The notes below the pieces were generated by a model that had not been told where the DNA came from, ran no database searches, and saw only the letters and a list, made by a program, of their open reading frames with translations. Source: Eledone cirrhosa (Eukaryota). Taken from it: a stretch of DNA of 64,000 nt. The stretch covers positions 40,796,001-40,860,000 of the forward strand of contig OZ024747.1 in the NCBI GenBank assembly GCA_964016885.1, read 5' to 3'. This document shows, piece by piece, positions 1-60,949 of the stretch (position 1 is its first letter; each line of letters opens with the position of its first letter). A program made the position numbers and the translations under genes.

Positions 1-813
1 AACTTTTTGAGATAGTCCCTAGTGCGCCTATGACAATCGGGATCACTTTGACTTCATGGCAGTTCCAAATCCTTTTTACCTCCCACTTTAAGTCCTGGTA
101 TCGGTTAATTTTCTCCCTCTCCTTCTCTTGCACTCTCGTGTCGAATGGGCAGGCCACATCTACAATTAGGCACGATCTTTTTTCTTTGTCCACAACCACC
201 AGGTTAAGTCTATTGTGTTCCAGTTTCTTGTCCGTCTGTATCCTAAAATCCCACAGCACCTTCACCTGATCGTTCTCCATCACCGCCTCTGGCTTATGCT
301 CATACCACTTCTCAGAATGTGGTTAATTGTTTACTTTGCAGAGGTGCCAGTGGATCACCCTGCCCATCACATCATGTCTCCAGCCCTTATAGTGAGTCTG
401 GGCTAGGTGTTTACACTCGGATACAATGTGAGCCACAGTCTCCTCTCTGTCTCCACAGATCCTGCACAGTGGGCTAGCCTCCTCCTTGTAAATATGGTGT
501 TTCAACCACTTCGTTTTGAGGGCCTGCTCCTGCGCAGCCATTAACATTCCTTCTGTAGCCTTTTTATGGTCTCCTCTTTTCAACCAGTTCCATGTCTGTG
601 GATCTCTAAATTCAGTTTTCTCAAAGAAGGTATTATGAAGGGATTTTCCCTTAAGGCTGCTCTTCCTCCTTGATGTTATTTCCTCCTTGGACATCCCCTG
701 GCCTACTGTCCCCTCCTTCAGTACAGTTCTGAGCATTGGCTCCTTACTATAGGTCACGTATTTGTATAGGTTGTTTTTCTCCATCTGAACACAGTCCTCT
801 ATGCTGATAAGAC

Positions 814-816
<3 letters not shown>
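1..816 (-). mobile_element. 5'-truncated R4/Dong-clade LINE copy, same family as 1012-4640; runs off the window edge
   Basis: Near-identical to about 1194-2008. Encodes the CRICG..ETVAHIVSEC zinc knuckle and RHD motif (ORF 323-784). The endonuclease PD motif is mutated (RLNL instead of RPDL). Its 5' end abuts (TAA)n at 817. Confidence 0.9.
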
Positions 817-888
<72 letters not shown>

Positions 889-899
889 GTTGTTATTAC
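817..899. repeat. (TTA)n/(TAA)n microsatellite, Dong tail/target
   Basis: Direct reading of the sequence. Confidence 0.95.
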
Positions 900-1011
900 T
901 CTTTGAGTCTCAGTCATTGATGTTAGTTAACTGGAAAGTTTGTTGAAATGAATATCAAGCCACTACCTTATTATTTATTATTATTATACATTATTGTTAT
1001 ACATTATTATT

Positions 1012-4000
1012 CCTTGAATCACAGTCATTGATGTTAGTTAACTGGAAAGTCCGTTGGAATGAATATCAAGCCACTACCTGCAGCCTCAGATATTCAGGAC
1101 GTATCTGAGGGTTCTTGCTGTTCCCAGCAAGCATGCCTTTTGAAGCGTTCCAAAAAGCGTGAAGGGGTCAATTTTCTTTAACCATCCCTGGAAACTTTTG
1201 GAGATAGTCCCCAGTGCGCCTATGACAATCGGGATCACTTTGACTTCATGGCCGTTCCAAATCCTTTTTACCTCCCACTTTAAGTCCTGGTATCGGTTAA
1301 TTTTCTCCCTCTCCTTCTCTTGCACTCTCGTGTCGAATGGGCAGGCCACATCCACAATCAGCCACGATCTTTTTTCTTTGTCCACAACCACCAGGTCAGG
1401 TCTATTGTGTTCCAGTTTCTTGTCCGTCTATATCCTAAAATCCCACAGCACCTTCACCTGATCGTTCTCCATCACCGCCTCTGGCTTATGCTCATACCAT
1501 TTCTCAGAATGTGGTAAATTGTTTACTTTGCAGAGGTGCCAGTGGATCACCCTGCCCATCACATCATGTCTCCAGCCCTTATAGTGGGTCTGGGCTAGGT
1601 GTTTACACTCGGATACAATGTGAGCCACAGTCTCCTTTCTCTCTCCACAGATCCTGCACAGTGGGCTAGCCTCCTCCTTGTAAATATGGTGTTTCAACCA
1701 CTTCGTTTTGAGGGCCTGCTTTTGCGCAGCCATTAACATTCCTTCTGTAGCCTTTTTAAGGTCTCCTCTTCTCAACCAGTTCTATGTCTGTGGATCTCTA
1801 AATTCAGTTTTCTCAAAGAAGGTACTATGAAGGGATTTTTCCTGAAGGCTGCTCTTTCTCCTTGATGTTATTTCCTCCTTGGACATCCCCTGGCCTATTG
1901 TCCCCTCCTTCAGTACAGTTCTGAGCATTGGCTCCTTACTATCAGTCACGTATTTGTGTAGGTTGTTTTTCTCCATCTGAACACAGTCCTCTATGCTGAT
2001 AAGACCTCTTCCACCCTCAGATCTCCTTAGGTAGAGTCTATCGACATCACTCCTCTTGTGGAACATGTTGTAGATAGTCAATAGCTTCCTAGTCTTCCTA
2101 TCCATTTCTTTTTGTTCAGCAACATTCCATCTCAGAATTCAAGCACTGTACCTAATAATAGACACAGCTCGGTAATTTACTGCGCTTATGGCATTTCTGC
2201 TCTTCAGATGTGACTTCAATACGCTCCTTACTCTCCGAATGTATTCTGTTCTTAACAATTCCTTCATTTTTTTGTTCTTTATGCCATCAGCCTCCAGAAC
2301 GCCCAAATACTTGTATCCTTCCTCAGAGTCAATTTCCCACCTGTTGGTATCTGGATTCCGTTACTTCTGCTCAACCTACCCTTCCTCATCACAATGACTC
2401 CACACTTACCAATACCAAACTGCATACATATATCACTGCTGAAAATACGGAGTGTCAACAAGCACATCCAACTCCTTCTCACTCTTCCCGAAGAGCTTAA
2501 GATCGTCCATGAAGAGGAGGTGATTGATGGTAAGCCCTCCCTTTCCCAACCCGTATCCTGCTCTCACTTTTCGCAGTACACTGGTCAGGGGCATCAGCGC
2601 AAGGACAAACAACAGAGGGGACAGGCTATCTCCCTGGAAGATACCTCTCTTGATCTTCACGCTTTCCAAGGATTCTCCAGTTGATGTCAACTCTGTTTCC
2701 CAGGACCTGATACTCTTGCCCAACAACTGTTTGATGTTATCTGCCACCTTGAAGATCTCCAGGCTTTTGGTGATCCAAGAATGAGGCACCATGTCAAATG
2801 CCTTTCTGTAGTCTATCCATCCCATGGCAAGATCAGTGTGTCTCCTCCTGCAATTCCCCATTACCATCTTATCAATAAGTAACTGGTCCTTTGTACCACG
2901 TGACTTCTTTCGGCATCCTTTCTGTTCGTCCGGTAACAAGTTGTTTGTGTGGAGGTGATGGTAGATTTCCTCAGACATAATGCTCGTCAACAGTTTCCAC
3001 ATTACGGACAGACATGTGATAGGTCTATAGTTGGTAACATCATTACCCTTGATTCGGTCTTTCATTATCAGAACTGTGGTACCTTTTGTCAACCACTTTG
3101 GTACCTCACCTGACATCAAGCAGTCATTGAACATGGTTGTCAGTTTCGGGTGGAGGGATGTTATATTTTTAATCCAATACCCCTGCACACCATCTGGGCC
3201 TGGTGATTTCCAGTTGGTTAGTTTTTTGGCCTGCCCCTTAAGAGTTTCATCTGTGATACTCAAATCAGTTTGCTGGTGTGCCTGCTCACCGATCTCCCTC
3301 TGTACTGTCTCAATCCACCCTGCCTGGTCATTATGTCTAACATCCTGCTCCCATATTCCTCTCCAGAATGTTTTAGTTTGTTCCGCCTCAGGGATCAAGT
3401 CGTTGCCTCTTTCTTTCCCCTCAAGCTGTCCAAACAGCATCTTCTGGCTGTTGTCGAACATGCGGTTCTGTTTATACTGACTGACTCTGTTCTCGTATCG
3501 CCTGATTTTTGCACTCTTTGCTACAATGCGTTGCTTCAGTTCCTCTATGATAATATTTAGCTTTTTCCTCCTAGTTTTGTACTTTATTTCCAGTCTATTT
3601 TTAGTGCCTATGTTTTTTAGTGTCCCATTCAGTAGTGACTCAAGCTTTCCAATGTCATTTCTCATTTCCCTGATTTGACCACTCAGTCGTTTCTTCCACC
3701 TAGGCTCTGCTCTTTCTTGTCTGTTGTTTCCTCTCGCTTTCATACCAAGTAGTTTCCTCACCGTATTTGATGTTGCTTTGAGTATATTGTTGCACTGGTG
3801 AAGGCTCCTCGCCTCAAGGTATGGGATGACTTTGTTTACCTTAGCTGTTGTTTCTTTTAACTTTTTCCTGTCTACAAATCTTAGGTTCATAGGTCTCCCA
3901 CTATCATTGTTCAATTCATCTACCACTAAATTTAGGATGTCAACCGAATCTTGTCCTAGCCCGCCAGCATTCATCTCCTCAGTGGCCGTATCTCTGTTCC

Positions 4001-4640
4001 AGGTATTATTTATCTCAGTATTCAGATCATTGTCTGCTTCGGGTGGTTCCTCCGTTCTCTCGACCTCTTCACCTTCATTTCCCACTGGCTCGTTTGCCTG
4101 GCATACTCCACCCTCCATCTCCAAGCTAATCTCTCTGCTCAGTTCCTCCAGTTCCAGCTCGCTTATCCACCCATTAGTTCTTATTACCCGAGCCTGCCCG
4201 GCCAATTTTTGTTCATCTAATTTAAATAGACCAATCTCGTTCCAGATGTTATGCATCCGTCTCCTATAGCCCCTCTCCTTGGGGTTACTTTTCAGGTAAC
4301 ATTGCATAACAGTTCTATTCAATTCTTTCGTCCAGTTGGTTCTGGTCCCTTTCCTTCTTCTTCTTCCTCCGACACCAGCAGTATTTGGTTGACAGCCAGC
4401 TTCCTGCTGCTGAGCCAGGTTCCTGCTGCTGAGCCGGGGAGCACCTGTTGGGTGAGAGTCTGTCACATGACGTTCTAGTCTCCATTTCACCGTTATTCGA
4501 ACTGTTTAGGTTCGATATTTAAACACTCTTATCGAAGATTGGCGAATGTATGGTTACATAACCATCTGTGGATTCACCGTCTCCGGTGGTTGGTCGCTCC
4601 ACTTGGCTCTTGTGTGGCATTATCACCACGCTGTAGACGA
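1012..4640 (-). mobile_element. R4/Dong-clade non-LTR retrotransposon (RT plus restriction-like endonuclease), near full length, disrupted
   Basis: ORF 2433-4490 has RT motifs (NYRPITCL, IDYRKAFD, GIFQGDSLSP, HLLFMDDLKLF). Downstream frames 2105-1086 give the CCHC knuckle, RHD, and PD..D..E-K endonuclease motifs. The 3' UTR ends in (TAA)n. Frameshifts near 2480-2280 and a stop near 1782. Confidence 0.93.
2433..4490 (-). pseudogene. R4/Dong ORF, N-terminal region plus reverse transcriptase (685 aa, frameshifted after the MDD motif)
   Basis: Translated RT motifs in the ORF track. Confidence 0.9.
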
Positions 4641-5021
4641 ACACAAATAAACAAACAAACAAACAGGCAGAAAAACCCCCAAAAATGAATAAGCATAAGT
4701 TTCATTGTAATGTAGTGTTCGAATGTCTGACTTAGTTTTTCCCTTCTCTTCTCTGTCCGTCCGCTTGTTTCTCTCTACATTCTTATTTTCTTTACGTTTT
4801 TTTGTTTTTGTTTTTCTCTGTTTGTTTTTCTTTTTTTTTTGTTGTTGTTGCTGTGCTGCTTTGGTTTTGATTTTTGATTTTTGTTTTTTCTTTTGAGTCT
4901 ATCTATATATTTTGATGCCTTCCTCTTTTTTAGTAGGAATTCTATAATGTGGTGGCAGTGCTGTGCTAGCGGAAACTAGCAGGAAGCAATGGGAGAGAAT
5001 AGCGGCGGTAGCGATACTGAG

Positions 5022-5713
5022 GCAGTGGTGGTGGTGATGTCGATACTGAGGCAGTGGTGGTGGTGATGTGATCGTATTACTGTAGTGATGGTGTTGTAGC
5101 GGTCGTAGCAATGAAGGAGTGGTGGCGGCGGTGATGGGATAGTGGTAGTAATGATGGATGGGCGGCGTTGTCGTTACTGATGTCCGTTCGGTGAATCTAT
5201 GGGGTTAGTCGCGTACATGTGTTGACATAAATTCCCTTAATGTTGGAATTAAACATTTTGTTAAAACTTGGGACAATAATAATAGTATTTATTATTATCA
5301 TTATTATGTTGAGATTGGTTGAGGTGGTGGTGAAGTTGCCGTTATCTGGCTGTTGTGTTTAGTGTACACAGAGAGGTGATGGGGTAGGTGGTGTATCTAG
5401 TTTCTGGTATTGGTGAGATTGGTGTTGTTTGGCTGTTCTATATAGTGTAGACAGAGGAGGGGGGTTCTTCTTCTTCCATTTATAGCCATTTTCTTTTTTG
5501 AATATACAATGTACAATACAAAGTTGAATATTTGAATATTTGAGCCTTATAACAATATATTTTGGGTCCGAATTTTTGGGGGGCTCAAGCCGGATGCTTT
5601 ACGTAACATTTGTACTAAGAGTTGTTATTTCACAAATGATTTAAATATGTTAAAAATTCAAAACTTACGGGAGCGATTTCATGACCTTCTACCACCTCGT
5701 GCGTCTTCTTCCC
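5022..5713 (-). repeat. 5' module X, copy 1 (duplicated at about 10262-10800)
   Basis: 5022-5157 and 5323-5713 match 10262-10396 and 10408-10800 almost base for base. Both copies abut (TTA)n. Confidence 0.88.

Positions 5714-5804
<91 letters not shown>
5714..5804. repeat. (TTA)n microsatellite
   Basis: Direct reading. Confidence 0.95.
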
Positions 5805-5806
<2 letters not shown>

Positions 5807-5930
5807 AGTTGCATTTATCTTGCTTTATGTTCATACGAGTTATCACCAAGTCACAACCAGTGACCTCAAGAGACAACAAGGTCCGCCATGTTCAAGAAAG
5901 AACATACATATTCATATTATTATTATTATT

Positions 5931-8900
5931 ACAGTTGCATTTATCTTGCTTTATGTTCATACGAGTTATCACCAAGTCACAACCAGTGACCTCAAGAGAC
6001 AACAAGGTCCGCCATGTTCAAGAAAGAACATATATATTCACACATGCATCTTTAGTGTTTAGACTTGTGATGTACTTATATTGACAGAATCTTCCTTAGT
6101 ATATGGGCAGTTCCCATTAGTACTATCTTTTGTATTTCTCCTATACGCGGGTTTCCTGGGATTTGCGATAAGTAATCATTAGACCGCTTAGGTATCATTC
6201 CCAGAGCGCCTACAACCACTGGTATTGTTTTAGTTCTCAATTTCCACATTTTTCCAATTTCTATCTCCAGGTCCTTATACTTGCTCAATTTTTCAAATGT
6301 TTTTATAGATACATTCCTGTCTATTGGAACAGACATATCAATTAGCAGGCATACCCTCTTTTGGAAGTCTTTCAATATTATATCAGGTCTGTTTGCATCT
6401 ATTTTTCGGTCTGTTTGGATGCTAAAGTTCCACAAGATTGAGATGTGATCTTTTTCAAGTATGGGAGGTGGTTGATGCTCCCACCAATTCTTTTGATGGG
6501 GCAGGTCAAAATGCTTACACATTATCCAATGTATGTATTGTGCAGCTCTGTCATGCCTGTTTAGGTATTCGGTTGGAGTTATAGGACTGCACATTGAAAT
6601 TATATGGTCAATGGTCTCTGGTTGTTTTATGCATACTCGGTATAATGGGCTACACCCATTTTTTATTATGTTGGCTTGGTAATTTTTTGTTGGCAGACAC
6701 TGATCTTGTGCCGATATAATCAGTCCTTCAGTCTCCGATTTCAGTCCAGAGGATGCCAACCACTGATGGGTTAAAGTTTTGTCAACATCAGGATTGTTAG
6801 CTCGCTCTGAGTATTTTCCATACAGAGGCTTTTCTTGCCATTTCTTAGCCAGTTTCTGTAGCAGTTCTTTCTTTGCAGTTACTTTTACCTGCTTTGCTTT
6901 TTATGTGTTTTCCATTTCAGCAGTAAATGGGACTTCTGAAATTTGTAGTCCATTACTGTATCTTTGTGCATCTTTTGTAATGGAATATGATCTGTTGATG
7001 CTTTCGTGTTTCAAAACGAGTTTGATCATCCAATCATGTGATTCCCTTAGATATGTAGATAATCCAATTGTTGCAGTTTTCAACGCAATGTCTAACTGGA
7101 TTAACCCACGTCCTCCTTCTTTCCTAGGGAGATATATTCTATCTATATCTGCCTTAGGGTGATGCATTCTGTGCATGGTTAAGAATTTTCGAATTTTTGT
7201 ATCGAGCCTACGGATCTTTGTGCTTGACCAGTTGATGACATTGTAACTGTAGGTTACTACTGGTATGGCAAGCGTGTTTATGGCATTGATCCTATTCCTT
7301 GCATTCAATTCCGTTCTTAAAATTGCTCTTACTCTGCGGTAACATTCCTTCCTTATCCTTTCCCTCATTGTCGAGTGCTTGATTCCGTCTCCTTCACAAA
7401 CACCTAGATATTTGTAAGTTTTTTCTTGATCAAGTTCTCTTATCACGTTCCCCCGATCAAGATTAATGTCTGAACTTTTCAGCAGCTTTCCTCTGGTGAA
7501 CGTTGCTTTGGCGCATTTATCTAGTCCAAACTCCATTTTAATGTCATCACTGAACTGCTTCACAGTGGATAATAGCCCTTGCAATTGTTCATCATTTTTT
7601 GCAAATAGTTTCAGGTCATCCATGTAGAACAGGTGATTAATGGTTTTGTCATAAACTTTATATCCATGTTTTGTTTCATTGAGCATTTTACTTAATGGTA
7701 TAAGTGCGATGCAGAATAAAAGCGGTGATAAAGAGTCACCCTGAAAAATTCCACAATTAATATTAACTTCTCCAGCTTCCAGTGATTTTGTTTCACTATT
7801 CAAAAGGAGTGTCGTTTCCCATGTCTTCATACTGAATGACAAAAACCTCCTGACAACGGGGGATATTTTGAAAATCTCTAAACATTTTTCAATCCAACTG
7901 TGTGGCAAACTATCGAATGCGTTTTTATAATCTATCCAAGCAATCGATAGATTTTTGTGTCATATGAGAAATAGGTCATTTGTTATCAGGTGATCATATG
8001 TGTATTCAGTTAGGACTGATGTTAAAATTTTATACATTGTGGTCAAGCAAGTTATCGGTCTGTAATTTTGGGGATTGTTTGTCTCATCATTCTTCGGAAG
8101 CAGGAATGTAATGCCGTTAACTAGCCATGATGGTATCTTTTCTGGCTCCTTAACTATTTCATTGTAAAGTTGGGCTAACAGCTCATGAGACTCTGTGAAG
8201 GCATTTATCCAAAAGTTTTGTATTTTGTCTTTTCCTGGGGATTTCCATTTGCTGGTTTTTCTTAGAGCCAAGCGCAACTGTTCAACTGTTATATTTTCCC
8301 ATATTTGTTCCTCAAGGTGAGCTGTATCTTTCATGTGTCTGTCTATCCATGGGGCATGTATGTTATGAACTATTTCTTCGGCCCAGATCTTTTCCCAGAA
8401 TTCTTGCACTTCCTCCTTGGGTGGTATTGATTTAGCAGTTATTGTTGACTTACCAACTTTTCTGTAGAAGTCTCTTTGGTTGTTTTTGAACATATTATTG
8501 TCCTTATAGAATCTAGATCGTTTTTCAAAGCGCTTTATACGAGCAGCTTTGGCCGACACTTTTTGCTTGATTATTTCTATCAGCATGTCTATGTCACATG
8601 TTGATTTTATACTGTACTTTTTTTTCAATTTTCTAAGTTTAGTTTGTTTAACATGTTCACCTACTTTATAGTTTGTTAAAATTTTTATGTCAGATCGGAG
8701 AAGGTTTATTTGGCGATTGATGTTCTCTTGCCAAGTAGATTTCTTGTGGGAATTCCTTTGTTTTTTCATCTTCACTCCACATAAGTGAGTGGTGACTTTA
8801 GCCGATGCATAATAGAGATGATTTAAATCAGTAATGTTTAGTTTGTTTGTGATGATTATGTTTTTGAGAATTATGTTAGTCTTGTGTATTATCTTTTGGT

Positions 8901-9810
8901 TCTGTTTGGAGTTCTGGATCTTAGGGAGGGTGTCTCGTTGCCCCATGTCAGATTCTTTCATTTTCATCCATTCGATCATAATTTCATCCTTCAAGTTGGC
9001 AAGTTCATTCTCATTCATTTCTTTATCATTTACGATCTCATTATTTTCATTTGGAGTTTCATCCTGAGCATGCACTCCCTCCACTTTTTCGATCCTTTCT
9101 TTAATTTGTTCTGTTGCCAGTGATTCCGCCCCAACCCTGGGATTCGAAGTGTTACAGTTTACCTCGTTTTCACTGACACATGTTTCATTTTCCCTTCGCT
9201 GACTTTGTGCTAATAGCTTGATCTGATCAATTTCTATATCAGTTAGTAACTTTTTTCTTACAATATTTCTTCGTATATTGGCTAGTTTGTTACTGTCAAT
9301 ATAGCCTCTGTTTTCGGGATGTTTCTTTTTCCAGTTGATATATGTCTGTTCTGTATTCGATGTATTTGATGGGTAGTACATGGCAGTGTAGAAAGCCTCA
9401 AGGACTTCTTTATTATCTTCCCTTCACCATTTTTCTCTCTTTTTCTTTGGATTTCTTGGTGGTGAGCATGGAGGGCCAACAGTAGGAGTATTCCGGTTAT
9501 GGGAGGTCTCCAGCTCCGAAGTGATGGGAAGGTTTGAACCATTAGCTGATTTTTCGACCCCAGTCTGGTTCCTCTCTGAGGGACGCGGCCCTTTTTTACC
9601 CGGGTGACGGCCGATCCGGTATGAGATTTTATCATTAGACATTTACTTTATTTTGTCGCGTTTTATCCTTATCCGCCAAGGGGTAATCATTTCGTGTTAC
9701 CACTTCTAGAACGAGTGTCAACCAAGACTAGAGGGGTCGTTCTCCCCTAGAGACACGGCTATTCCCCGCCGGCCGCACTCACGGTATTTCTTGGTCACGG
9801 GGTTTTCTTT
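5931..9810 (-). mobile_element. Second, divergent R4/Dong-clade LINE, near full length, disrupted
   Basis: ORFs 9381-7960, 7908-6901 and 6759-6076 carry NYRPITCL, GIFQGDSLSP, HLFYMDDLKLF, ETIDHIISMC, RHD, RPDII..D and KYKDLEIE. The RT segment equivalent to EQKGC..DQLLI appears deleted near 7960. The 3' UTR ends in (TAA)n. Confidence 0.93.
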
Positions 9811-10261
9811 TTGTTGTTTTTTTAAATTGTTATTATCATGAGTGGTTCCTTAATGTGAGCATAGCGTGGCTTAAGAATGAAATTATTAATAATTGTCTCC
9901 ACTCCAGGCACAAGGCCAGCAATCACCCAGTGCATTACAATAATATAATATACTTTTTGTTGTAGTTGGCTGTTATTGTTGTTGGCTATGTCGGTGGTGG
10001 TGCCGGGGCTTTTTATATTGTTGGTGAGGAAGGGGTGAGCCAGCAGTCCCATAGTTGTTGATGTTGACGTTTGGTGACCAGGTCACTAAGTCAATCTATT
10101 TATATATTTTGCTAGCCTCTCCCTTGTCTAGTGATACCGCCACCTTCCCCTTTCTCTCTCAAGTTAACAGGGGAATAGTGGTGGTAGCATTGAAGGAGTG
10201 GTGGCGGCGACGATGGGATAGCGGTAGCAATGATGGATGGGGTGGGGGGTGGCAGCGGTGA

Positions 10262-10800
10262 CAGTGGTGGTGGTGATGTCGATACTGAGGCAGTGGTGGT
10301 GGTGATGTGATCGTATTACTGTAGTGATGGTGTTGTAGCGGTGGTAGCAATGAAGGAGTGGTGGCGGCGGTGATGGGATAGTGGTGGTAATGATGGCAGT
10401 AGTGAGTGGTGGTGGTGAAATTGCCGTTATCTGGCTGTTGTGTTTAGTGTACACAGAGAGGTGATGGGGTAGGTGTTGTATCTAGTTTCTGGTGTTGGTG
10501 AGATTGGTGTTGTTTGGCTGTTCTATATAGCGTAGACAGAGGATGGGGGGGGGGGTCTTCTTCCATTTATAGCCATTTTCTTTTTTGAATATACAATGTA
10601 CAATACAAAGTTGAATATTTGAATATTTGAGCCTTATAACAATATATTTTGGGTCCGAATTTTTTGGGGCTCAAGCCGGATGCTTTACGTAGCATTTGTA
10701 CTAAGAGTTGTTATTTCACAAATGATTTAAATATGTTAAAAATTCAAAACTTACGAGAGCGATTTCATGACCTTCCGCCACCTCGTGCGTCTTCTTCCCT
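10262..10800 (-). repeat. 5' module X, copy 2
   Basis: Matches 5022-5713 and is followed by (TTA/TTC)n at 10800-10872. Confidence 0.88.
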
Positions 10801-10829
10801 TATTCTTATTCTTATTCTTATTATTATTC

Positions 10830-10872
<43 letters not shown>

Positions 10873-10874
<2 letters not shown>

Positions 10875-11520
10875 TTGGGGGGGGGGTCATATTGTTGTAA
10901 TAATATTGCCAGAAATAATAACTGAACACAATCACTGTTTGGTTGGTTTTCGCTTCTGTATCTTTTATATCTCCATAGTTAATTTATTTGGCCATCAATG
11001 TTTATCATTGACTGACCAACGGTTAAAAATACAGATATAAATATATATATATAGTCTATCAAAGTTCTTTCGTTGCACATCTGCAACATCATCAGTGGTA
11101 CTATGATCATGTGTCCTCCTATTGTGTTGTGTTTACGCCATTTTTATTTTATTTAATTATTGATTTATTGATTTTTGTCTCTGTCTCTGTGCATGCGTTT
11201 GCGTGTGTGTATAATGTTTGGTGTGTGTGTTTGCGTTTGGGTGAGTGTGTTTTGGTTTTTGTATTCTATCTTTGTTTATTAGTGTGTGTTTATATGTGTT
11301 TGTTGTTATTGTACTAGTGTATATATTTATTTATATTTCTCTTAAGTCAGTATTGTGTGTTTGGATGTTTTTGTTGTTGTTCCATTTATTTTTTCTGTTT
11401 AACTTTAGCTTTCTAAGCTCTATTTCGCTCGGTTCTCAGATTTTCCTGCCTGTTGGGTCATTTCTATGTTTAGATATTATTTTAATTTCTATGTTGTCTA
11501 TGTTACCGTCATGTTTTTAT
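10873..11520 (-). mobile_element. Penelope-like element 3' fragment (GIY-YIG C-terminus plus pseudo-LTR with hammerhead)
   Basis: Reverse-complement homolog of about 27420-28090. Confidence 0.8.
11057..11100 (-). ncRNA. Minimal type I hammerhead ribozyme motif (family B variant)
   Basis: Minus strand reads TACCA CTGATGA T GTTGC-AGATGT-GCAAC GAAA GAAC TT TGATA. Confidence 0.65.
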
Positions 11521-14416: not shown

Positions 14417-14592
14417 TATCGGTAGAGGGTCGGACGCCATGCTTTCTAGCATAGAGTTACGTCCCTTTACGGACCAGTTCAAATCCCGCCGAGGTTAGCT
14501 TTGCCTTTCATCCTTACGGGGTCGATAAATAAAGTACCAGTAATGTACTGGATAATTGGTGGCCTTGTGCCAAAAGTAAAAACAATTATTAT
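14417..14592 (+). mobile_element. tRNA-derived SINE (main family)
   Basis: B-box GTTCAAATCC, conserved core GCCTTTCATCCTTACGGGGTCGATAAA, and tail GGCCTTGTGCCAAAAGTA. Many copies in the window. Confidence 0.85.
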
Positions 14593-14680
14593 TTATAACT
14601 ATACTCCGGATAAACATATACCGTTGAGTTCTTTACATCTGTTATATAAAAGGCGGCTGATTCTCTCTCTATATATATAT

Positions 14681-16189: not shown

Positions 16190-18600
16190 CTGAGCTGTGC
16201 TGCAAAATCGATAATGTCTTGCGCAGAATGTGGTATGTTCCTAGAAGAACTATCTTTCAACATTATGTAGCTTTGTGAGCCCTGTTATGGCTTGTATAGT
16301 TTTGTTCATATCTATTTATTACACTTAATGCATCACATTATTAGAACTACTTTTACCTTCATGCCCCACATTCTGTTATTTCGATTTCGGGATACTTGTA
16401 TTTCGATAGTTTTTCCACTTGTGTGCATGCATTTTCCCCAGTCATATATTATCATATCTGTACGATTTGCCTCAATATCGTATCAGTTTCGATGGACATA
16501 TTCAAGATGGCTGAGGCCAGGCCATTATCTTCTACCGTGTTTACATGTTTAGTACATTTTAAAGTCACTTTTTGCCCATGTTCACAACTGCCCACTCGAT
16601 CAAGCGTGTGTTCAGACTTGAAAACTATTGGGCAGCAGGAGATGGTTTGATTAATCGTCTCACTGTGCTGGTTGCACAGTCTACATTTGAAGTTAGAAAC
16701 TGGTTTTATTATTTCGTTCTTGTTTTTAGCCAGACATTGATTTTGTACAGATAAAATCAGCCCTTCTCTTTCTTCTTTTAGCCCGAGGTTTTTAAGCCAT
16801 TGTTGATTTCCGTATGGCTTACTTTTCTAACGAGTCTTGAGGGGTAATGACTGGAAAGTGGGTTTTCTTTCCATCTCTTCTCAGAACATTTTGTAGTTCT
16901 TTTTTTCATTCTTTTGTTTCTGTAACTTTTTCTGTTGTAACATTCTTATCTAAATCTGTTGCTTCGGTGTAGTTAGCTCCTACTTCTAGTTTGTTTTCTG
17001 TCGCTTTTTTGTATATAAATATTTTTGTTTTCGTATTTTTAATACATTTATCAGTTTTCCACTATTTGCTTCTAAATATGTTTTCCAGTCCGCCCGTTGT
17101 TATTTTATAGAATTTTCTATTTGTATCCGACCATGCCCTCTTTGTAGTAAGTATATTTTATCTGTCTGCTTTGGGATGGCGGTTTCGATACACTGTTTTG
17201 TGGTTTCTTTCTAAAACTTTCAACTCACTTAAATTCCAGTTTATTATATTGAATGGAGATGATGGGTTGTCCTGGCATGAGTTGTGCGGATCCGATTAAG
17301 GGATGGCAACCTTCATGTGGCCCACCCTGTACGGAATTCATCGAAATTAATGTCATTTCTCGATATATGAACAGTTTGGGTATATCGCTAATTTTGGAGA
17401 GAAAACTAGATTGACTTTCCACTCCAGCATTCAAACAGTTGTTCATTCTTGTGTGCTTATCATTTCAATTGATGCTTCTGCTATGTATATCTATATACTG
17501 ATCAGGATTTTCAGACAGAATTCGGAAACTTTGTGTCTATTCCTGGTGTTTTCCAGTTACTTACACTTCTCAATGTGTCAGTGATTTCTATGCTAGTGAT
17601 GGTGGGTCATTCGTGTGGGGCAGCTATGTATTTTTCTCTTCCTTTTTGATCAATTGTGAATTTTTGTTGTTTATTTTCTCTGCTCTATATTCCCATCCAT
17701 TATATTTGGTTTTCCTACGGTGTTGATGTGTCTTCTACTATCAATATGTTTTATTCCGCATGTTTTTGCTACTAAGCTCTGTTTTAGCTTTTCTCCGGCT
17801 TCCAAAGTGTCTCCCTATCTATTTGTGTTATATGTATTTCGTACTTGGATCATATCTATTTCTTCTTTTTGTTTGATCACCTTTTTCTAGTTCACGAAGT
17901 AATTATATAGCTTTCATTTTGTTTTCAATTTTGTGTCATGTTTCCTTTCAATTATGGAGGACTGGCTGTTGCTGGAGCTTTCCTTCATTAGAAACAAGCC
18001 CATTTTCTATTAACACCAATAATGTTATTAAATATATCTAATCATCCATTATGTCGATATTCTAACAGTTTGTTGTATTATGCAGGAATTCTTACAGGGC
18101 CCTTTTATATTTATATATCTCTTCATAGAGCAGTTTATTGATTTTGTAATGTCTTCTATTTTCTTAATTGTTTCAATTAGATCATCTTCTATATTAATTC
18201 TAGTAGATCTGTTGTGTATTTTTATTTTGCTTATTGTTAGATGTGTTTTAACTTTTGTATTTCATATTGTGTTTCTTTGACCTTCATCTTTTTTGTTTTT
18301 CGATTGTTGCCTACGCGTTTCTTTTTTTTAAATTTGCTATACTACATTATTTATTTCTTGTGTGGACAGATCTGTTGTAATTTCAGTCTGGCTTGGGTTC
18401 TCAATAATTATTAATGAGATTTTTTTTCTTTTCGTTCTTTTGAGTAAGGAAGGCTCAGTTGTGCTATTTTCGTTGGCTTCTAATGCGTTTATTGTGTGGT
18501 TATAAGTTTTGTTTTATTTTCAATTTGTATTCTGTCTATAAATTTTGATTTTAGATACCTTGGTTTATCTTAAAGTACTTCTCCGTCCGATTGCTGGTGT
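16190..18600 (-). mobile_element. Highly decayed R4/Dong-clade LINE
   Basis: Minus-strand remnants read by eye: KIVLLGTYHILRKTLS (C-terminus, about 16210-16250), HPKAD..IYL (about 17140-17180) and NWKTPG (about 17542-17560). Confidence 0.65.
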
Positions 18601-18839
18601 GTTTTCTCGTATAGTTTCCTTGGGTCGTTGTTATGTTTTCCTCCATAGCTCATATATTTCTTTCACAATGCTGCTGTGGTTTGCTTACAGTGTTACTGAG
18701 TGTTATTCATCCTTCGGAATCGAAGATTACTATGACTGCAATGTTGAGTGGAGGATCTTTGGTTGTGGGTCTGCAGGGGACTGATGCGACTAATCATGGC
18801 CTGGAAGCTATACCTACGTGTGGGGAGGTGCTGCACAGA

Positions 18840-21678: not shown

Positions 21679-21749
21679 AATGATACGTGTTTTTATTATT
21701 ATTATTGTTATTATTATTGTTATTATTAAGAAATCGTTAGTATTATAAC

Positions 21750-21975
21750 TGTGGATTGGTAAAATCGTTAGAGTGTCAGAGAAAATGCTTTGCGGCATTT
21801 GTTCCAGCCCTTTACGTCCTGAGTTCAAATTCCGTTGAGGTTAACTTTGCCTTTCATCCTTACGGGGTTGATAAAATAAAGTACCAGTAATGCACTGGGG
21901 TAGATTTAGTTGAATTTCTCCTCTCCCCCCCAGGAAAAAAAATTTGCTGGCCTTGTGCCTATAGTAGAAATCATT
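21750..21975 (+). mobile_element. tRNA-derived SINE (variant of main family)
   Basis: A/B boxes and the conserved GCCTTTCATCCTTACGGGG core. Confidence 0.8.
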
Positions 21976-22147
21976 ATTATCATTTTGTTGTTATTGTTTT
22001 TGTTATTGGTATAGCTGTTATTATTGTTCGTGTTGCTTTTGTTGATGATGAGGATGATGATGATGTTTATATAGTCTATATAATAATGATATAGAGGAGA
22101 CATTAATTATTTGTTAATGAGATATTAACGATAATTACCATGATCAT

Positions 22148-22261
22148 AATAATTGTTTCTACTTCTGGCACAAGGCCAGCAATTATTCCAGTGTATGACT
22201 GGTACGTTATTATATCGACCCCTTAAGGATGAAAGGCAAAGTTAACCTCGGCGGGATTTGA
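22148..22261 (-). mobile_element. SINE 3' half
   Basis: Reverse complement of the SINE core and tail. Confidence 0.75.
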
Positions 22262-52400: not shown

Positions 52401-55298
52401 TTTGAACCCGGATCAAAGGTAACTCTACTGCGATTTCACTTCGCACTATACGTGGGATAAGAAGGGAAAGAAATGTAATGATAGAAAACAAAAGTTGAGA
52501 TTCATGACTATTGGACGGGTTTGTAATGTCCATCCAGCATCTGGTGATGTGTTTTATCTCCGAATTCTGTTGCATAGTGATTTTTCGAGAGGTAAACAGA
52601 GCTTCGTTGATTTGAAAACATACCAGGCTGTGTCAACATCTGGGAATCCTTCAGGATGACGCTGAATGGAATAACGCCATGGAAGCTGCTGGAACGACAC
52701 AGATGCCAGCTCAAATAAGGCAGTTGTTTGTCACGATTCTAGGATTCTGCAATTCTGCCGATCCAAGAGAGTTATTTGAACGCCATTGGGGAATTATGGC
52801 TGATGATTTTAGCCATCATCTTCAGGTCGATGATGAAAATTTGATGATGGCTATTGTTTTGCTCAATATTGAGCAACTGCTTGAAGTTCATTTGAAATGT
52901 TTAAGAGATTTCAATTTGCCAATTCCTGATGAAGAAATGCGGCAACGTGTCTTAGCATTGAACATGAGATTGCAGCTTAGACGGTTGCCACTCGATCGGA
53001 GGGAACTATTCCAGTTTGATCCACTGGAACAACAACGTATTGTGGATGAACCTATGCCAATGTTGACCCAATCTCAGAGAGAATTGGTCGATGGCGTTCT
53101 CCACTCGATTTCCACTAATGAGCAAATTTGTGCTTTCATAGATGCTCCAGGAGGCACCGGAAAGACATTCTGTTTCAACACTATGTTATCGGCATCCCTG
53201 TAGAAAACAGTGGGATCGCTGCCACTTTGCTGAGTGGTGGAAGGATCTTCCACTCATACTTCAAGGCTCCATTGGCTCCGGATGAGTTGAGTGTCTGTAA
53301 CATTACAGGACAAAGTGAACTCGCGGGCCTTATACGCAATACGTGGGGACGAGGCTCCAATGGCACACAGATATTTGCTGGAGGCATTGGACAGAACTTT
53401 GAGAGATATCTGGTGTAGTGACCTGCCATTCGGTGTTAAGACTATCGTTCTTGGTGGCGATTTCAGTCAGGTGCTACCAATTGTTAGGAATGCTCAAAGA
53501 GCGCAAATTGTCGATGCATGTCTGAAAAAGTCCCCGTTGTGGCGCCATTTCAGAGTTTTGCGATTACACGATAATATGCGACTTCGTATGTTCGGGCAAA
53601 ACGAAAAGGCCGATGGTTGATGCAGTTGGGAAACGATGAATTGCCACACGTTGGTGATAATCAGACTGTAAGAATCCCAGACCATTTGGTCATGCCACTG
53701 GACCGCCAAGCATTGATTGACTGGGTGTCCCCTAATTTGAATGCTTTTTGGCAGAATATCTCCTGGATATCGGAACGCCTTATTCTAACTCATACGAATG
53801 CAATGGTCGATGAAATAAATTCACAAGTAGCCGGAATGTTTCCTGGAGAGGAATGGTTGACCGTCAGTGCGGATGCAATGGAGCCTAATCAGCAGAACAA
53901 TATGGATGTTCCGACTGAGTATCTGAATTCACTTCAAATAACCGGATTTCTCCCACATATTTTGAGGTTGAAAAGGGGTATGCTGATTATATTGCTTAGA
54001 AATATCAATCATAAAATGGGTCTTTGCAATGGTACTTTGATTGTTGAGAGATTGATTAACGCAAGAGTTTCAGAAGCTAAACTCCCAGGCAGAGAGGAAT
54101 CGGTTTTCATTCCGAGGATCATGCTGAGACCAAGTGAAGATCTGCTGCCATTCATTTCATTTGGCAAAGGTGACAGTTTCCCGTCAATTTGGCCTTCTCC
54201 ATGACTGTCAACAAGGCACAGGGACAGACTTTCAAGCGAGTCGGTGTCTACTTGAATGATCCAGCATTCAGCCATGGGCAACTTTATGTTGCTGCATCTC
54301 GAGTGTGCCATCCTGATGGTATAAAATTTGCAATTGATACCACTAACAGAGGAACAACCTTGAATATTGTCTATAATGAAGCTTTGAGCTGATGTATGCA
54401 TATCTTTAATGCTATCAATAAGCGACGTAAATGATTCGGACACTGGTGTCCTTTGATCAGTATTGTGAGCTTTGACAGAGTTATCATTTATGTTCAATGT
54501 CATATATTGTCGATAATGAGCAATAAAAACCAACAAGTATTGGTAGAAATTGCCTTCAAATTTATCGCTTCTGATTGCAGTGGTAATAAAACCTCATCAT
54601 ATGCTGAGTCTGGCAAAAGGTTTGGTACCTATGGCCGGCAAGGGCTAGAGTAATATTGAAAAACGATTCTATTTTCGAAGTAGAAGGATCCGCCATTTGG
54701 AGTTCAAACCAAGCCACCTCCCCGAGTTGAACTCTGGGCAATATTGACTGTCTATTACTCAGTGGCTAAGACCTGGAAATTACTGAATAAAGTGTTGTGT
54801 CATATAATTTGTTGTTTTATTATTATAGCTGACCACTTATAGATAAGCATGTTATCCATATCCATATTAATTTGGCATTTGTATTATTTCAAGTAAATAG
54901 GGACCTTTTTTACATTGACGGACATCTTTTATATTAATTATCTATATCTGTATCTACATATAATATAAAAGATTGGAACTTCCATCATCCTTTTGAGAAA
55001 TGTGGAACAACCACGTCTATGCAATGATACACGTTTTACAGTCACGCAGAAGATTAACCATCTCCTAGAAGTCACTATTCTAGGTGGGGTGGGAGCATTG
55101 TTCATATACTATGCACAAGCGGTACAACCAAGAATCTGGTATATCTGGAAGATTTTGTTTTACTGTTTTCCGTATCACACAGACACTACGGACTCGCCTC
55201 ATACTGTAACTAGACAAACATCCAATACAGTCATTTTCTTTTTACCTGTCTTCTCTTATCCTCTATTTACCCAGGCGAAGCTGGGTACGTCAGCTAGT
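49435..55298 (+). mobile_element. Second, divergent Helitron (Rep plus Pif1 helicase), frameshifted
   Basis: ORF 50858-52273 has PDLFITVTCNP, VIEFQKRGLPHAHL (HUH) and YLFKYVYKG. Helicase motifs DAPGGTGKTF, GGDFSQVLP and TVNKAQGQTF follow. The 3' end is the ACCCAG-GCGAAG-CTGGGT hairpin plus CTAG|T near 55295. Confidence 0.92.
50858..52273 (+). pseudogene. Helitron Rep (HUH endonuclease) segment
   Basis: All three rolling-circle motifs are present. Frameshifted at both ends. Confidence 0.9.
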
Positions 55299-58420: not shown

Positions 58421-59002
58421 AATAATGATGTTTACACTCTACTAATGTATTGAGTACATTTTTAATTTTGGTTTCCCCGATTTCACTTATGATCTACAGA
58501 TATATGTATATATGTATGTATATATATATGCGCCTGCTTTTATCTGTTTCTCTCCTCTCTACGTCTTCCTTTTTCTTTTCACATTTCTCTCTTTCTCTCT
58601 CTCTCCTTCACCCTCCCCCTCTCTCTCCTTCACTCCCCTCTCTTCCCCCCTCTCTCCTTCTCAGCTTGTAAATATATATACACTAAGACATATCTCATCT
58701 ATGCTAGCGAGCAAGAGAGAGTGTTCAACGCCATACGTTTGGACCATAATAGTACAGAATTCGTTATAAAATTGCAAATCAACGACCGAAACATACATTA
58801 AAATACATGGATTAATTTTATCTCACTCGAGCATTGGCTTCATCAATTCGTTTCGTCATATTGATAAGAAGCGGAATAAATTTTGCCAGTAAATACGATG
58901 TTTGGTTGAAAAGTGTATAGGCTGACCCAGAGTCTCTCATAAAATGGCTAAATGAGTTTTATTTTTTCAGCATAGTCCCTGGAAATAAGCAATACAGTTA
59001 TT

Positions 59003-59193
59003 AATAATTGTTTCTAATTTTGGTACAACGCCAGCAATTACCCATTACATTACTGGTACTTTATTTTATCGACCCCGTAAGGATGAAAGGCAAAGTTAAC
59101 CTTGGCGGGATTTGAACTCAGACCATAAAGGGCCGTAACTCTTTGCTGAAAGCATGGCGTCCGACCCTCTGCCGATACTGCCAATCCACCGCC
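59003..59193 (-). mobile_element. tRNA-derived SINE with target-site duplication
   Basis: Family match. ATACAGTTATTAATAAT is repeated at about 58992 and 59198. Confidence 0.9.
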
Positions 59194-59830: not shown

Positions 59831-60397
59831 ATAATTAAGAAAATTTCAACTGGTAAACATTGAATATAACACATAGGGATATATCATTATACAAGCCAAA
59901 CTCTGTAGCTCACTGAATCATTTATATGGGAGACGTTTGGGAATATGATCCAGATGGTTGACATATTAGCCCTTCTGCGTCTTTGGTTAAGGCATTTATG
60001 TTCTGATAGTTAATTCTAGGCAGCCCATTTGATACTAAACTGCTTAAAAGCTAACTCTGACACAAAACTGTTTGTTTTAAACAATTTAGATTTATCTAAA
60101 AACCTTTCATCAACATTTTTCGTAAGAATCTTTTATTACGTTATGCTTCAAACTCCCGGCAAATAAAGAGAAAGCTATTTTCTCCAAAGCCTTCAAATTC
60201 GTAGTCATTTTCAGAAACATTTGAAAATAATTGGCAATGTCTTTTATTAGAAATATGGCAAGGAAAGGGTTAATTTTTATCTGAAATGACAGCTCATTAG
60301 TGTGTCACCACTTAGTGCGGCGTTGAACTACTTCGCTTTTCAAAATCTACGCTTGCATATTTCGTCCAGAAGACATGATATTGTTTAATAGAATAAC

Positions 60398-60586
60398 TGT
60401 TTCTATTTTAGGCACAAGGCTAGAAATAACCCAGTGTATTACTGGTACTTTATTTTATCGACCCCGTAAGGATGAAAGGCAAAGTTAACCTCGGCGGGAT
60501 TTGAACTCAGAATGGCAAGAGCCGTAACTCTATGCGTCAAAGCATGGCGTCCGACCCTCTACCGATACTGCCATTCCACCGCCCCT
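60398..60586 (-). mobile_element. tRNA-derived SINE with 17 bp target-site duplication
   Basis: TTGTTTAATAGAATAAC at 60381-60397 and 60587-60603. Confidence 0.9.
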
Positions 60587-60691
60587 TTGTTTAATAGAAT
60601 AACACCATAAAAACAAGCTCCTGTACAACTCATATACAAAGGCGAAGTTAAAGATAGCGTTAACATGTATTTTTGTTTAAATGATCCTGCT

Positions 60692-60867
60692 CAGTATCGG
60701 TAGAGGGTCGGACGCCATGCTTTCCAGCATAGTTACGTCCCTTTACGATCTGAGTTCAAATCCCGCCGAGGTTGACTTTGCCTTTCATCCTTACGGGGTC
60801 GATAAAATAAAGTACCAGTAATGCACTGGGTAATTGCTGGCCTTGTGCCTAAAGTAGAAACAATTAT
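60692..60867 (+). mobile_element. tRNA-derived SINE (main family)
   Basis: Family match. Confidence 0.88.
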
Positions 60868-60949
60868 TTTCTCTATTTACCGAAATAGATAAGGTTGACC
60901 ATGGTCTAATACAACAAGTACGCTTCTCACTATTAATGAATGTATGGAT

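Follow-up and report, generated by a model that had tools for sequence, protein, structure and literature searches.

The analysis concerned a single locus in one window of 64 kb (positions 40,796,001 to 40,860,000 of contig OZ024747.1, Eledone cirrhosa assembly GCA_964016885.1; "the window" denotes this whole stretch of 64,000 nt, to which all coordinates refer). Two long interspersed nuclear elements (LINEs) of the Dong type, designated Dong1 and Dong2, lie there among arrays of the trinucleotide TAA, and a copy of a module designated X is located at the 5' end of each (X1 in Dong1, X2 in Dong2). Both leaders and both open reading frames (ORFs) are on the minus strand. Read along this strand, the locus comprises (TAA)~24, X2-Dong2, (TAA)5, a 109-nt Dong2 stub, (TAA)30 and X1-Dong1, followed by degenerate TAA, a 68-nt Dong1-like stub, (TAA)~27 and a truncated Dong1 copy. 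The original prediction, made from the letters of the DNA, had given the same order of TAA arrays, X copies, Dong2, Dong1 and truncated Dong1, and its coordinates and sizes were correct on re-measurement. The features of the locus are as follows.

10873-11281, no strand assigned: dispersed repeat R, split by the TAA array
10800-10872, minus strand: outer (TAA)~24 array with TAAGAA variants; at the junction, TAA is followed by GGGAAG
10408-10799, minus strand: block A of X2, 5' end of Dong2, with a sub-repeat of 83-nt period and TATAAA at 10571
10262-10396, minus strand: block B of X2
10176-10241, minus strand: b', an older second copy of the start of block B, in the Dong2 leader
10095-10132, minus strand: Y', an older colinear segment of the Dong2 leader
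9888-9938, minus strand: 3' fragment (51 nt) of an abundant tRNA-type family resembling short interspersed nuclear elements (SINEs), in the Dong2 leader; 80-90% identical to 7 other copies
6073-9642, minus strand: Dong2 ORF, with reverse transcriptase (RT), zinc knuckle (first Cys changed) and PD..D endonuclease
5932-6072, minus strand: Dong2 3' untranslated region (UTR)
5915-5931, minus strand: (TAA)5 after the Dong2 3'UTR
5806-5914, minus strand: Dong2 3'-end stub, 109 nt, 1 difference
5714-5805, minus strand: (TAA)30 array; at the junction, TAATA is followed by GGGAAG
5323-5713, minus strand: block A of X1, 5' end of Dong1, with TATAAA at 5484-5479
5158-5322, minus strand: I1, 165 nt without counterpart in X2, including a short stretch of degenerate TAA (5289-5307)
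5023-5157, minus strand: block B of X1, the end of which overlaps a perfect 29-nt tandem duplication (5012-5069)
4898-4934, minus strand: Y, an older colinear segment of the Dong1 leader
1086-4485, minus strand: Dong1 coding region, with RT, CCHC knuckle and PD..D endonuclease; first ATG at 4485
968-1010, minus strand: degenerate TAA stretch after Dong1
900-967, minus strand: Dong1-like 3'-end stub, 68 nt, 6 differences
817-898, minus strand: (TAA)~27 array
1-816, minus strand: 5'-truncated Dong1 copy that starts directly at TAA and runs off the window

All five of the five 5' junctions at this locus are adjoined by TAA repeats. The outer array lies inside repeat R, other copies of which were found near 27040-27200, 28000-28160, 38300-38430 and 38620-38760. 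Since these four copies hold a single TTA at the site, without a TAA array, the 24-unit array must have arisen at this locus; it perhaps began as a tail-only insertion. Each full-length Dong is trailed by a short 3' stub of its own family, with TAA repeats between, which suggests abortive priming followed by re-priming on the RNA 3' end, or template jumps.

The coding parts of the two elements are very different. Their proteins share 31% identity over 727 columns and 37% over 455, and the GC contents of the ORFs are 45.1% and 37.7%, in agreement with the strong divergence in protein and GC claimed originally. In an RT tree of 104 sequences (including 102 of 138 fetched proteins, those covering the region, which are mostly Dong1 relatives, with no named reference), the distance between Dong1 and Dong2 was 2.6 substitutions per site, and Dong2 ranked 102nd of 103 from Dong1. 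The X copies, on the other hand, are about 97% identical, so that leader identity is discordant with ORF distance (97% in the leader vs 31-37% in the protein). Block A differs by 13 substitutions over 390 aligned nt (BLAST E-value 0.0) and block B by 2 of 135 nt (E-value 4e-62), in total 15 of 525 positions (2.9%), which bears out the two near-identical copies of about 390 plus 135 bp that had been reported. Between the blocks lie the 165 nt of I1 in X1, as against 11 unrelated nt in X2, a difference that is not a clean indel.

Both elements begin at the same nucleotide of X, directly after (TAA)n, and no array of (TAA)4 or longer lies between X and either ORF. In both respects X conforms to a 5' end of each Dong, as the original prediction had proposed, and its position is thus at the 5' end of two LINEs that abut TAA. 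The prediction had also considered that X might be a separate, TAA-targeting passenger element; as weighed here, X as a whole or block A alone would be a non-autonomous element that landed before each Dong. The exact start of X at TAA and the short degenerate TAA stretch that follows block A in X1 are compatible with this. That stretch, however, is missing in X2 and lies upstream of the shared block B, and X has neither a tail of its own ahead of the ORFs nor a free-standing copy in the window. Moreover, the first 110 nt of X, scanned with consensus motifs, gave A-box-like matches at one mismatch and no B box; the identical B-box scan was positive in the window's SINE and in a Dong-like relative discussed below (L006). 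We therefore regard a passenger as quite improbable.

Searches beyond the two copies gave no further X. When self-matches and internal sub-repeats were set aside, no third copy was found in the window, the other best 25 matches per query being of low complexity and scoring at most ∼43 bits, and neither the Dong2 leader nor positions 11000-64000 contained a significant match to I1. No GTDB contig matched a 22-nt X pattern, and the searched parts of the transcriptome FASTA files 1-4 and 8 of PMC9115989 contained no match to X motifs. A 105-aa reading frame over X2 gave no match at E≤1 among 23 candidates, six-frame translations of the leaders none among 287 fetched proteins, and both leaders compared with 17 related loci gave TAA-type matches only.

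The age of the similarity can be gauged from the truncated Dong1 copy, which differs from Dong1 at 27 of 816 positions (3.3%). The divergence of X1 from X2 (2.9%) is indistinguishable from this value (Fisher p=0.75), and from the stop codons the decay of each element is estimated at ∼2%, though the intervals are wide (0.4-6%). Because X divergence equals the decay between the two Dong1 copies, the source leaders can have differed very little at about the time when the elements were inserted. The same equality argues against duplication of X by misassembly. The region is repeat-rich, with microsatellites at the junctions, where an artefact might be expected, but the copies differ by 15 substitutions, 2 gaps and the 165/11-nt segment, and an assembly error is hardly credible.

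Beneath the young layer, traces of an older one were found in the leaders. Segment b' differs from the first 66 nt of X1 block B at 7 of 66 positions (89% identity). Y and Y' are identical in 30 of 38 columns (79%) and are colinear, lying ∼90-130 nt after B with a 14/16 motif in front. When the whole unique leaders were shuffled, the Y score was matched 5 times in 500; in sharper tests chosen afterwards it was matched by 0 of 2000 position-restricted shuffles, by 1 of 528 real 200-nt window tiles and, once the A-rich stretch of Dong1 was removed, by 0 of 198 tiles. Y is probably a real homology, in which case the leaders of both distant lineages would already have been related before the event that left them 97% identical. 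Nearer the ORFs, the leaders gave no alignment (93 of 2000 shuffles reached the score). In Dong2 the leader reads young A-B directly ahead of older b'-Y', the trace expected when a new module is placed before its old homologue. The older layer independently points to leader exchange, and one duplication cannot produce b' and Y.

On this basis, we favour, as somewhat better than an even bet, the reading that leaders were transferred by template switching between Dong families that target the same sites, at least twice, and that the chimeric Dong2 represents a propagating subfamily. The RT copying Dong2 RNA would have jumped to a Dong1-type leader, out of register, within the CCA-rich sub-repeats, and would thereby have placed a fresh A-B ahead of Dong2's own b'-Y', itself the presumed product of an earlier exchange. 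The chimera would then have entered the TAA array independently of Dong1. The young and old copies standing in tandem in Dong2 suggest a Dong1-type donor and Dong2 as recipient; the donor could alternatively have been a third family. Of what had originally been offered, a leader captured or swapped between families is thus supported by the older layer and the junctions, and the separate passenger named beside it is not.

A related possibility is that the Dong2 RT jumped to a Dong1-family RNA leader in a single insertion that founded no subfamily. Such a one-off chimera accounts just as well for the independent junction, for the differing linker between A and B and for the tandem of young and old copies, and passages of PMC3414825 describe R2 5' ends with template jumps onto other RNAs. 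It requires, however, that a rare event happens to be represented by one of the only two full-length elements examined, with the donor family beside it by coincidence, and the older layer suggests that earlier chimeras propagated. We consider it rather improbable.

Local duplication of DNA, which the original prediction had listed only as a refutation, together with misassembly, is a live rival, in contrast to the latter. According to this scenario, X is native to Dong1 only, and Dong2 entered the TAA array 5' of X-Dong1, duplicating ∼0.55-0.7 kb of the target downstream (TAA plus X), either as a target-site duplication of very great length or through strand invasion into the neighbour; in a variant, the copies were homogenized by later gene conversion. 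It exactly predicts the series (TAA)n-X-Dong2-(TAA)n-X-Dong1 and best explains the adjacency of the two copies, and an X divergence of 2.9% is compatible with twice the decay of Dong2. Rotifer R9 reportedly makes an exceptionally long target duplication, with a length of 126 bp. "Extremely long TSDs" (target-site duplications) are mentioned, in passages of PMC2912911, for truncated L1 insertions in HeLa cells, whereas for L1 in the genome a study that collected only duplications of 5-30 bp places their peak at 14-16 bp.

The repeat that flanks Dong2 has an age-compatible divergence, but its copies differ in junction register and in the 165/11-nt segment. X2 follows a complete TAA and X1 follows TAATA, and in the 11 of 17 related loci with a visible junction the register likewise varies (TAAT, TAATA, TAA). 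As DNA duplication would copy the junction, the differing register fits independent insertions, an argument of moderate strength. Duplication therefore requires extra events, namely a change of 1 nt where X meets TAA and the replacement of 165 nt by 11 nt, and it leaves over b' and Y, which still call for an older exchange. It is in our view unlikely; if it did occur, a target-site duplication of 0.6 kb would offer a rare glimpse of second-strand repair.

As regards the function of X, we judge it fairly probable that X is a leader module with a predicted internal promoter, acquired by transfer from family to family and present on other full-length copies of both. A LINE promoter must regenerate the element's own first base. 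The two grounds for the prediction that X probably supplies such an internal promoter are that X forms the first nucleotides of the element and that no ribozyme was detected. The TATAAA noted originally at 5479-5484 on the minus strand is present, with a second at 10571. As a pointer to a promoter it fails: the motif is found 143 times when the two strands of the window are counted together (1.12 per kb), and, as it lies ∼230 nt inside X, a start 30 nt past it would omit X's own 5' end, so it is uninformative.

Dong of Bombyx mori self-cleaves at the TAA junction by means of a ribozyme similar to that of hepatitis delta virus (HDV), according to passages of PMC3774820; in contrast, none was detected in the leaders studied here. 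A ribozyme of this kind at the 5' junction is known for R4 as well. Rfam searches at E≤10 over positions 4300-11000 gave 4 sub-threshold chance matches, and those over the whole window at the gathering score gave 0. With three descriptor scripts for HDV-like folds, the sense strand of neither leader gave a canonical fold, a weak negative as the scripts were run without a positive control. A 12-mer resembling R2 L3 near the 5' end of X was rejected, as it is on the antisense strand and without downstream elements. X has no terminal inverted repeats, no tRNA gene and no Rfam match. In folding compared with shuffles, the core leaders of Dong1 and Dong2 gave z=-1.67 and z=0.04, respectively. In the Dong1 leader, a long pyrimidine tract ending in CTACAG (∼4690-4631, minus strand; ∼145 nt before the first ATG) resembles a 3' splice acceptor.

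Each element retains one decayed reading frame. Both are interrupted by 3 internal stops each; Dong1 has in addition 3 frameshifts, one of which is a 19-nt duplication (4394-4435), and Dong2 an in-frame deletion of 28 codons. Pfam RVT_1 was matched with E-values of 4e-22 and 1.7e-21, and R2 proteins were the best solved relatives of both. A scan for the knuckle and endonuclease motifs identified a CCHC knuckle and PD..D in Dong1, and PD..D and KY.DL in Dong2, in which the first knuckle Cys is Tyr. Because no fetched homologue was named Dong or R4, the assignment to the Dong/R4 clade is based on architecture and target. No protein of the same family was present among the 151, 18 and 150 matches listed, the best showing 71% identity over 266 aa. 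Two heavily decayed Dong-like copies without X lie on the minus strand at ∼16206-18700 and 25254-26752.

According to passages of PMC13282606, O. vulgaris has 51 Dong-R4 families; recent activity is ascribed to 5, which have 1,129 near-full-length insertions with a mean length of 4.19 kb. With X included, Dong1 is 4.70 kb long and Dong2 4.87 kb; if blocks A-B are left out, the lengths are 4.01 and 4.33 kb, so that comparison with the O. vulgaris mean decides nothing.

The 17 related loci (L001-L017) are animal-type Dong loci in GTDB bacterial records, one of which (L007) is titled Streptomyces, and are likely to be host-DNA contamination. A (TAA)4+ array lies at most 700 nt before the ORF segment in 11 of the 17, and a 3' TAA tail was found in 6 of 17. 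Two complete Dong-like relatives, L001 and L006, have leaders that span from the TAA array to the start of the ORF, and neither shares X. The head of L006 (551-680), directly after (TAA)n, is tRNA-like with A- and B-box-like motifs, and that of L001 (131-260), also directly after (TAA)n, is one that we take to resemble 5S/tRNA-type SINEs; Rfam gave 0 matches on both loci. Because both carry SINE-type heads, the clade appears to recruit foreign 5' modules repeatedly. The heads suggest captured RNA polymerase III promoters on autonomous LINEs, on apparently eukaryotic contigs within bacterial metagenome-assembled genomes.

Several points weigh against transfer between families. The divergence of X has no power here, as it does not distinguish two independent insertions from a duplication of that age. 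The evidence comes from a single locus in which the sharers are adjacent; local duplication predicts adjacency, while family-wide sharing need not. The window holds no third X, and its two decayed Dong-like copies show none, but these are old and their 5' ends unrecognisable. In the older layer, the sharper tests of Y were picked post hoc, with the alignment already seen, and when the A-rich stretch of Dong1 is kept the Y score is matched by 21 of 198 unfiltered real tiles; b' is of low complexity and could have originated by internal duplication.

The register argument is weakened by mutation of the X2 array beside the junction and by the truncation of most of the relatives compared. I1 discriminates weakly, since large deletions occur at this age (28 codons in Dong2). 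The SINE fragment in the Dong2 leader looks like captured host DNA, and its divergence of 10-20% from other copies suggests that it predates the Dong2 insertion. Both leaders (∼1,230 nt in Dong1, 1,157 nt in Dong2) are much longer than those of L001 (218 nt) and L006 (426 nt). Finally, X contains no promoter motif above background, and block A folds no better than shuffles (z=0.33).

Other elements were found in the window. An abundant SINE-like family of the tRNA type, ∼190 nt long, has A/B-box-like motifs and an ATT-rich tail. Its copies include the following.

14417-14603: SINE-like copy
21748-21993: SINE-like copy
22146-22261: SINE-like copy
32691-32884: SINE-like copy
36197-36391: SINE-like copy
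58993-59193: SINE-like copy
60379-60587: SINE-like copy
60692-60869: SINE-like copy

A LINE fragment at 40310-42483 (minus strand) has RT and PHD-finger matches in one 525-aa frame. Fragments of Helitron-like Rep and PIF1 helicase lie in opposite orientations at 45481-47042 (minus strand) and 50834-54204 (plus strand), and positions 36782-37895 form a near-perfect palindrome of 1.1 kb (96.5% self-complementary).

Little is known of how LINEs that target microsatellites are transcribed outside rDNA, and the only Dong that has been tested uses a ribozyme. If X is family-wide, it would represent a defined 0.5-kb candidate promoter common to very distant lineages, and its transfer would show expression modules of LINEs crossing distances much greater than those known from L1. 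This bears on the number of Dong families that coexist in one genome, and it affects repeat annotation, since a shared leader would merge or mislabel families. A wider reading is tentative and, we think, has less than an even chance of being true: X may be a portable promoter-leader cassette among Dong lineages of one-third protein identity, which crossed at least twice, with TAA arrays as the sites of exchange. Were that so, and considering the SINE-type heads on two relatives, this branch of the R4 clade would have dropped the processing of read-through RNA by a ribozyme and would run on captured, swappable promoters.

The elements resemble the Dong/R4 clade (Bombyx mori Dong, Ascaris R4) in having a single ORF with RT, zinc knuckle and PD..D endonuclease, in both ends adjoining (TAA)n and in repeated insertion into one array; they differ in their leaders, which are ∼1.2 kb long and common to two very distant lineages. 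In the long target-site duplications of rotifer R9 and of L1 in cultured cells, a direct repeat would flank the insert, as X flanks Dong2, but 0.55-0.7 kb would be needed here, and the copies differ in junction register and internal structure.

In the open-access literature searched, we found no description of two autonomous Dong lineages so far apart that carry a near-identical leader, though subscription journals, Repbase or repeat libraries may hold one. Template jumps of R2 in vivo and R2/R1 hybrids of Drosophila (hybrid SIDEs) are described in passages of PMC3414825. As in these SIDEs, the 5' processing or expression module of one site-specific element would be carried here by a distant element that shares its locus, in tandem arrays; SIDEs, however, are non-autonomous and their module is a validated ribozyme, while the Dong2 recipient has a full ORF and a module of putative function.

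For mouse L1, passages of PMC3600994 describe 11 5'UTR replacements and recombination between families, and for mammalian L1, RT strand switching is one mechanism of 5'UTR exchange proposed in passages of PMC3600994 and PMC5381506. Both systems have one leader on non-sister families, and in both the leaders are long and sub-repeated. The mouse exchanges occurred mostly within one lineage a few million years deep, in contrast to the 31-37% protein identity found here, and L1 exchange is known from family consensus sequences, in contrast to one locus. Judged by its sequence, the present case would work like the 5'UTR exchange of L1, and what appears to be new is layered sharing across very distant Dong lineages.

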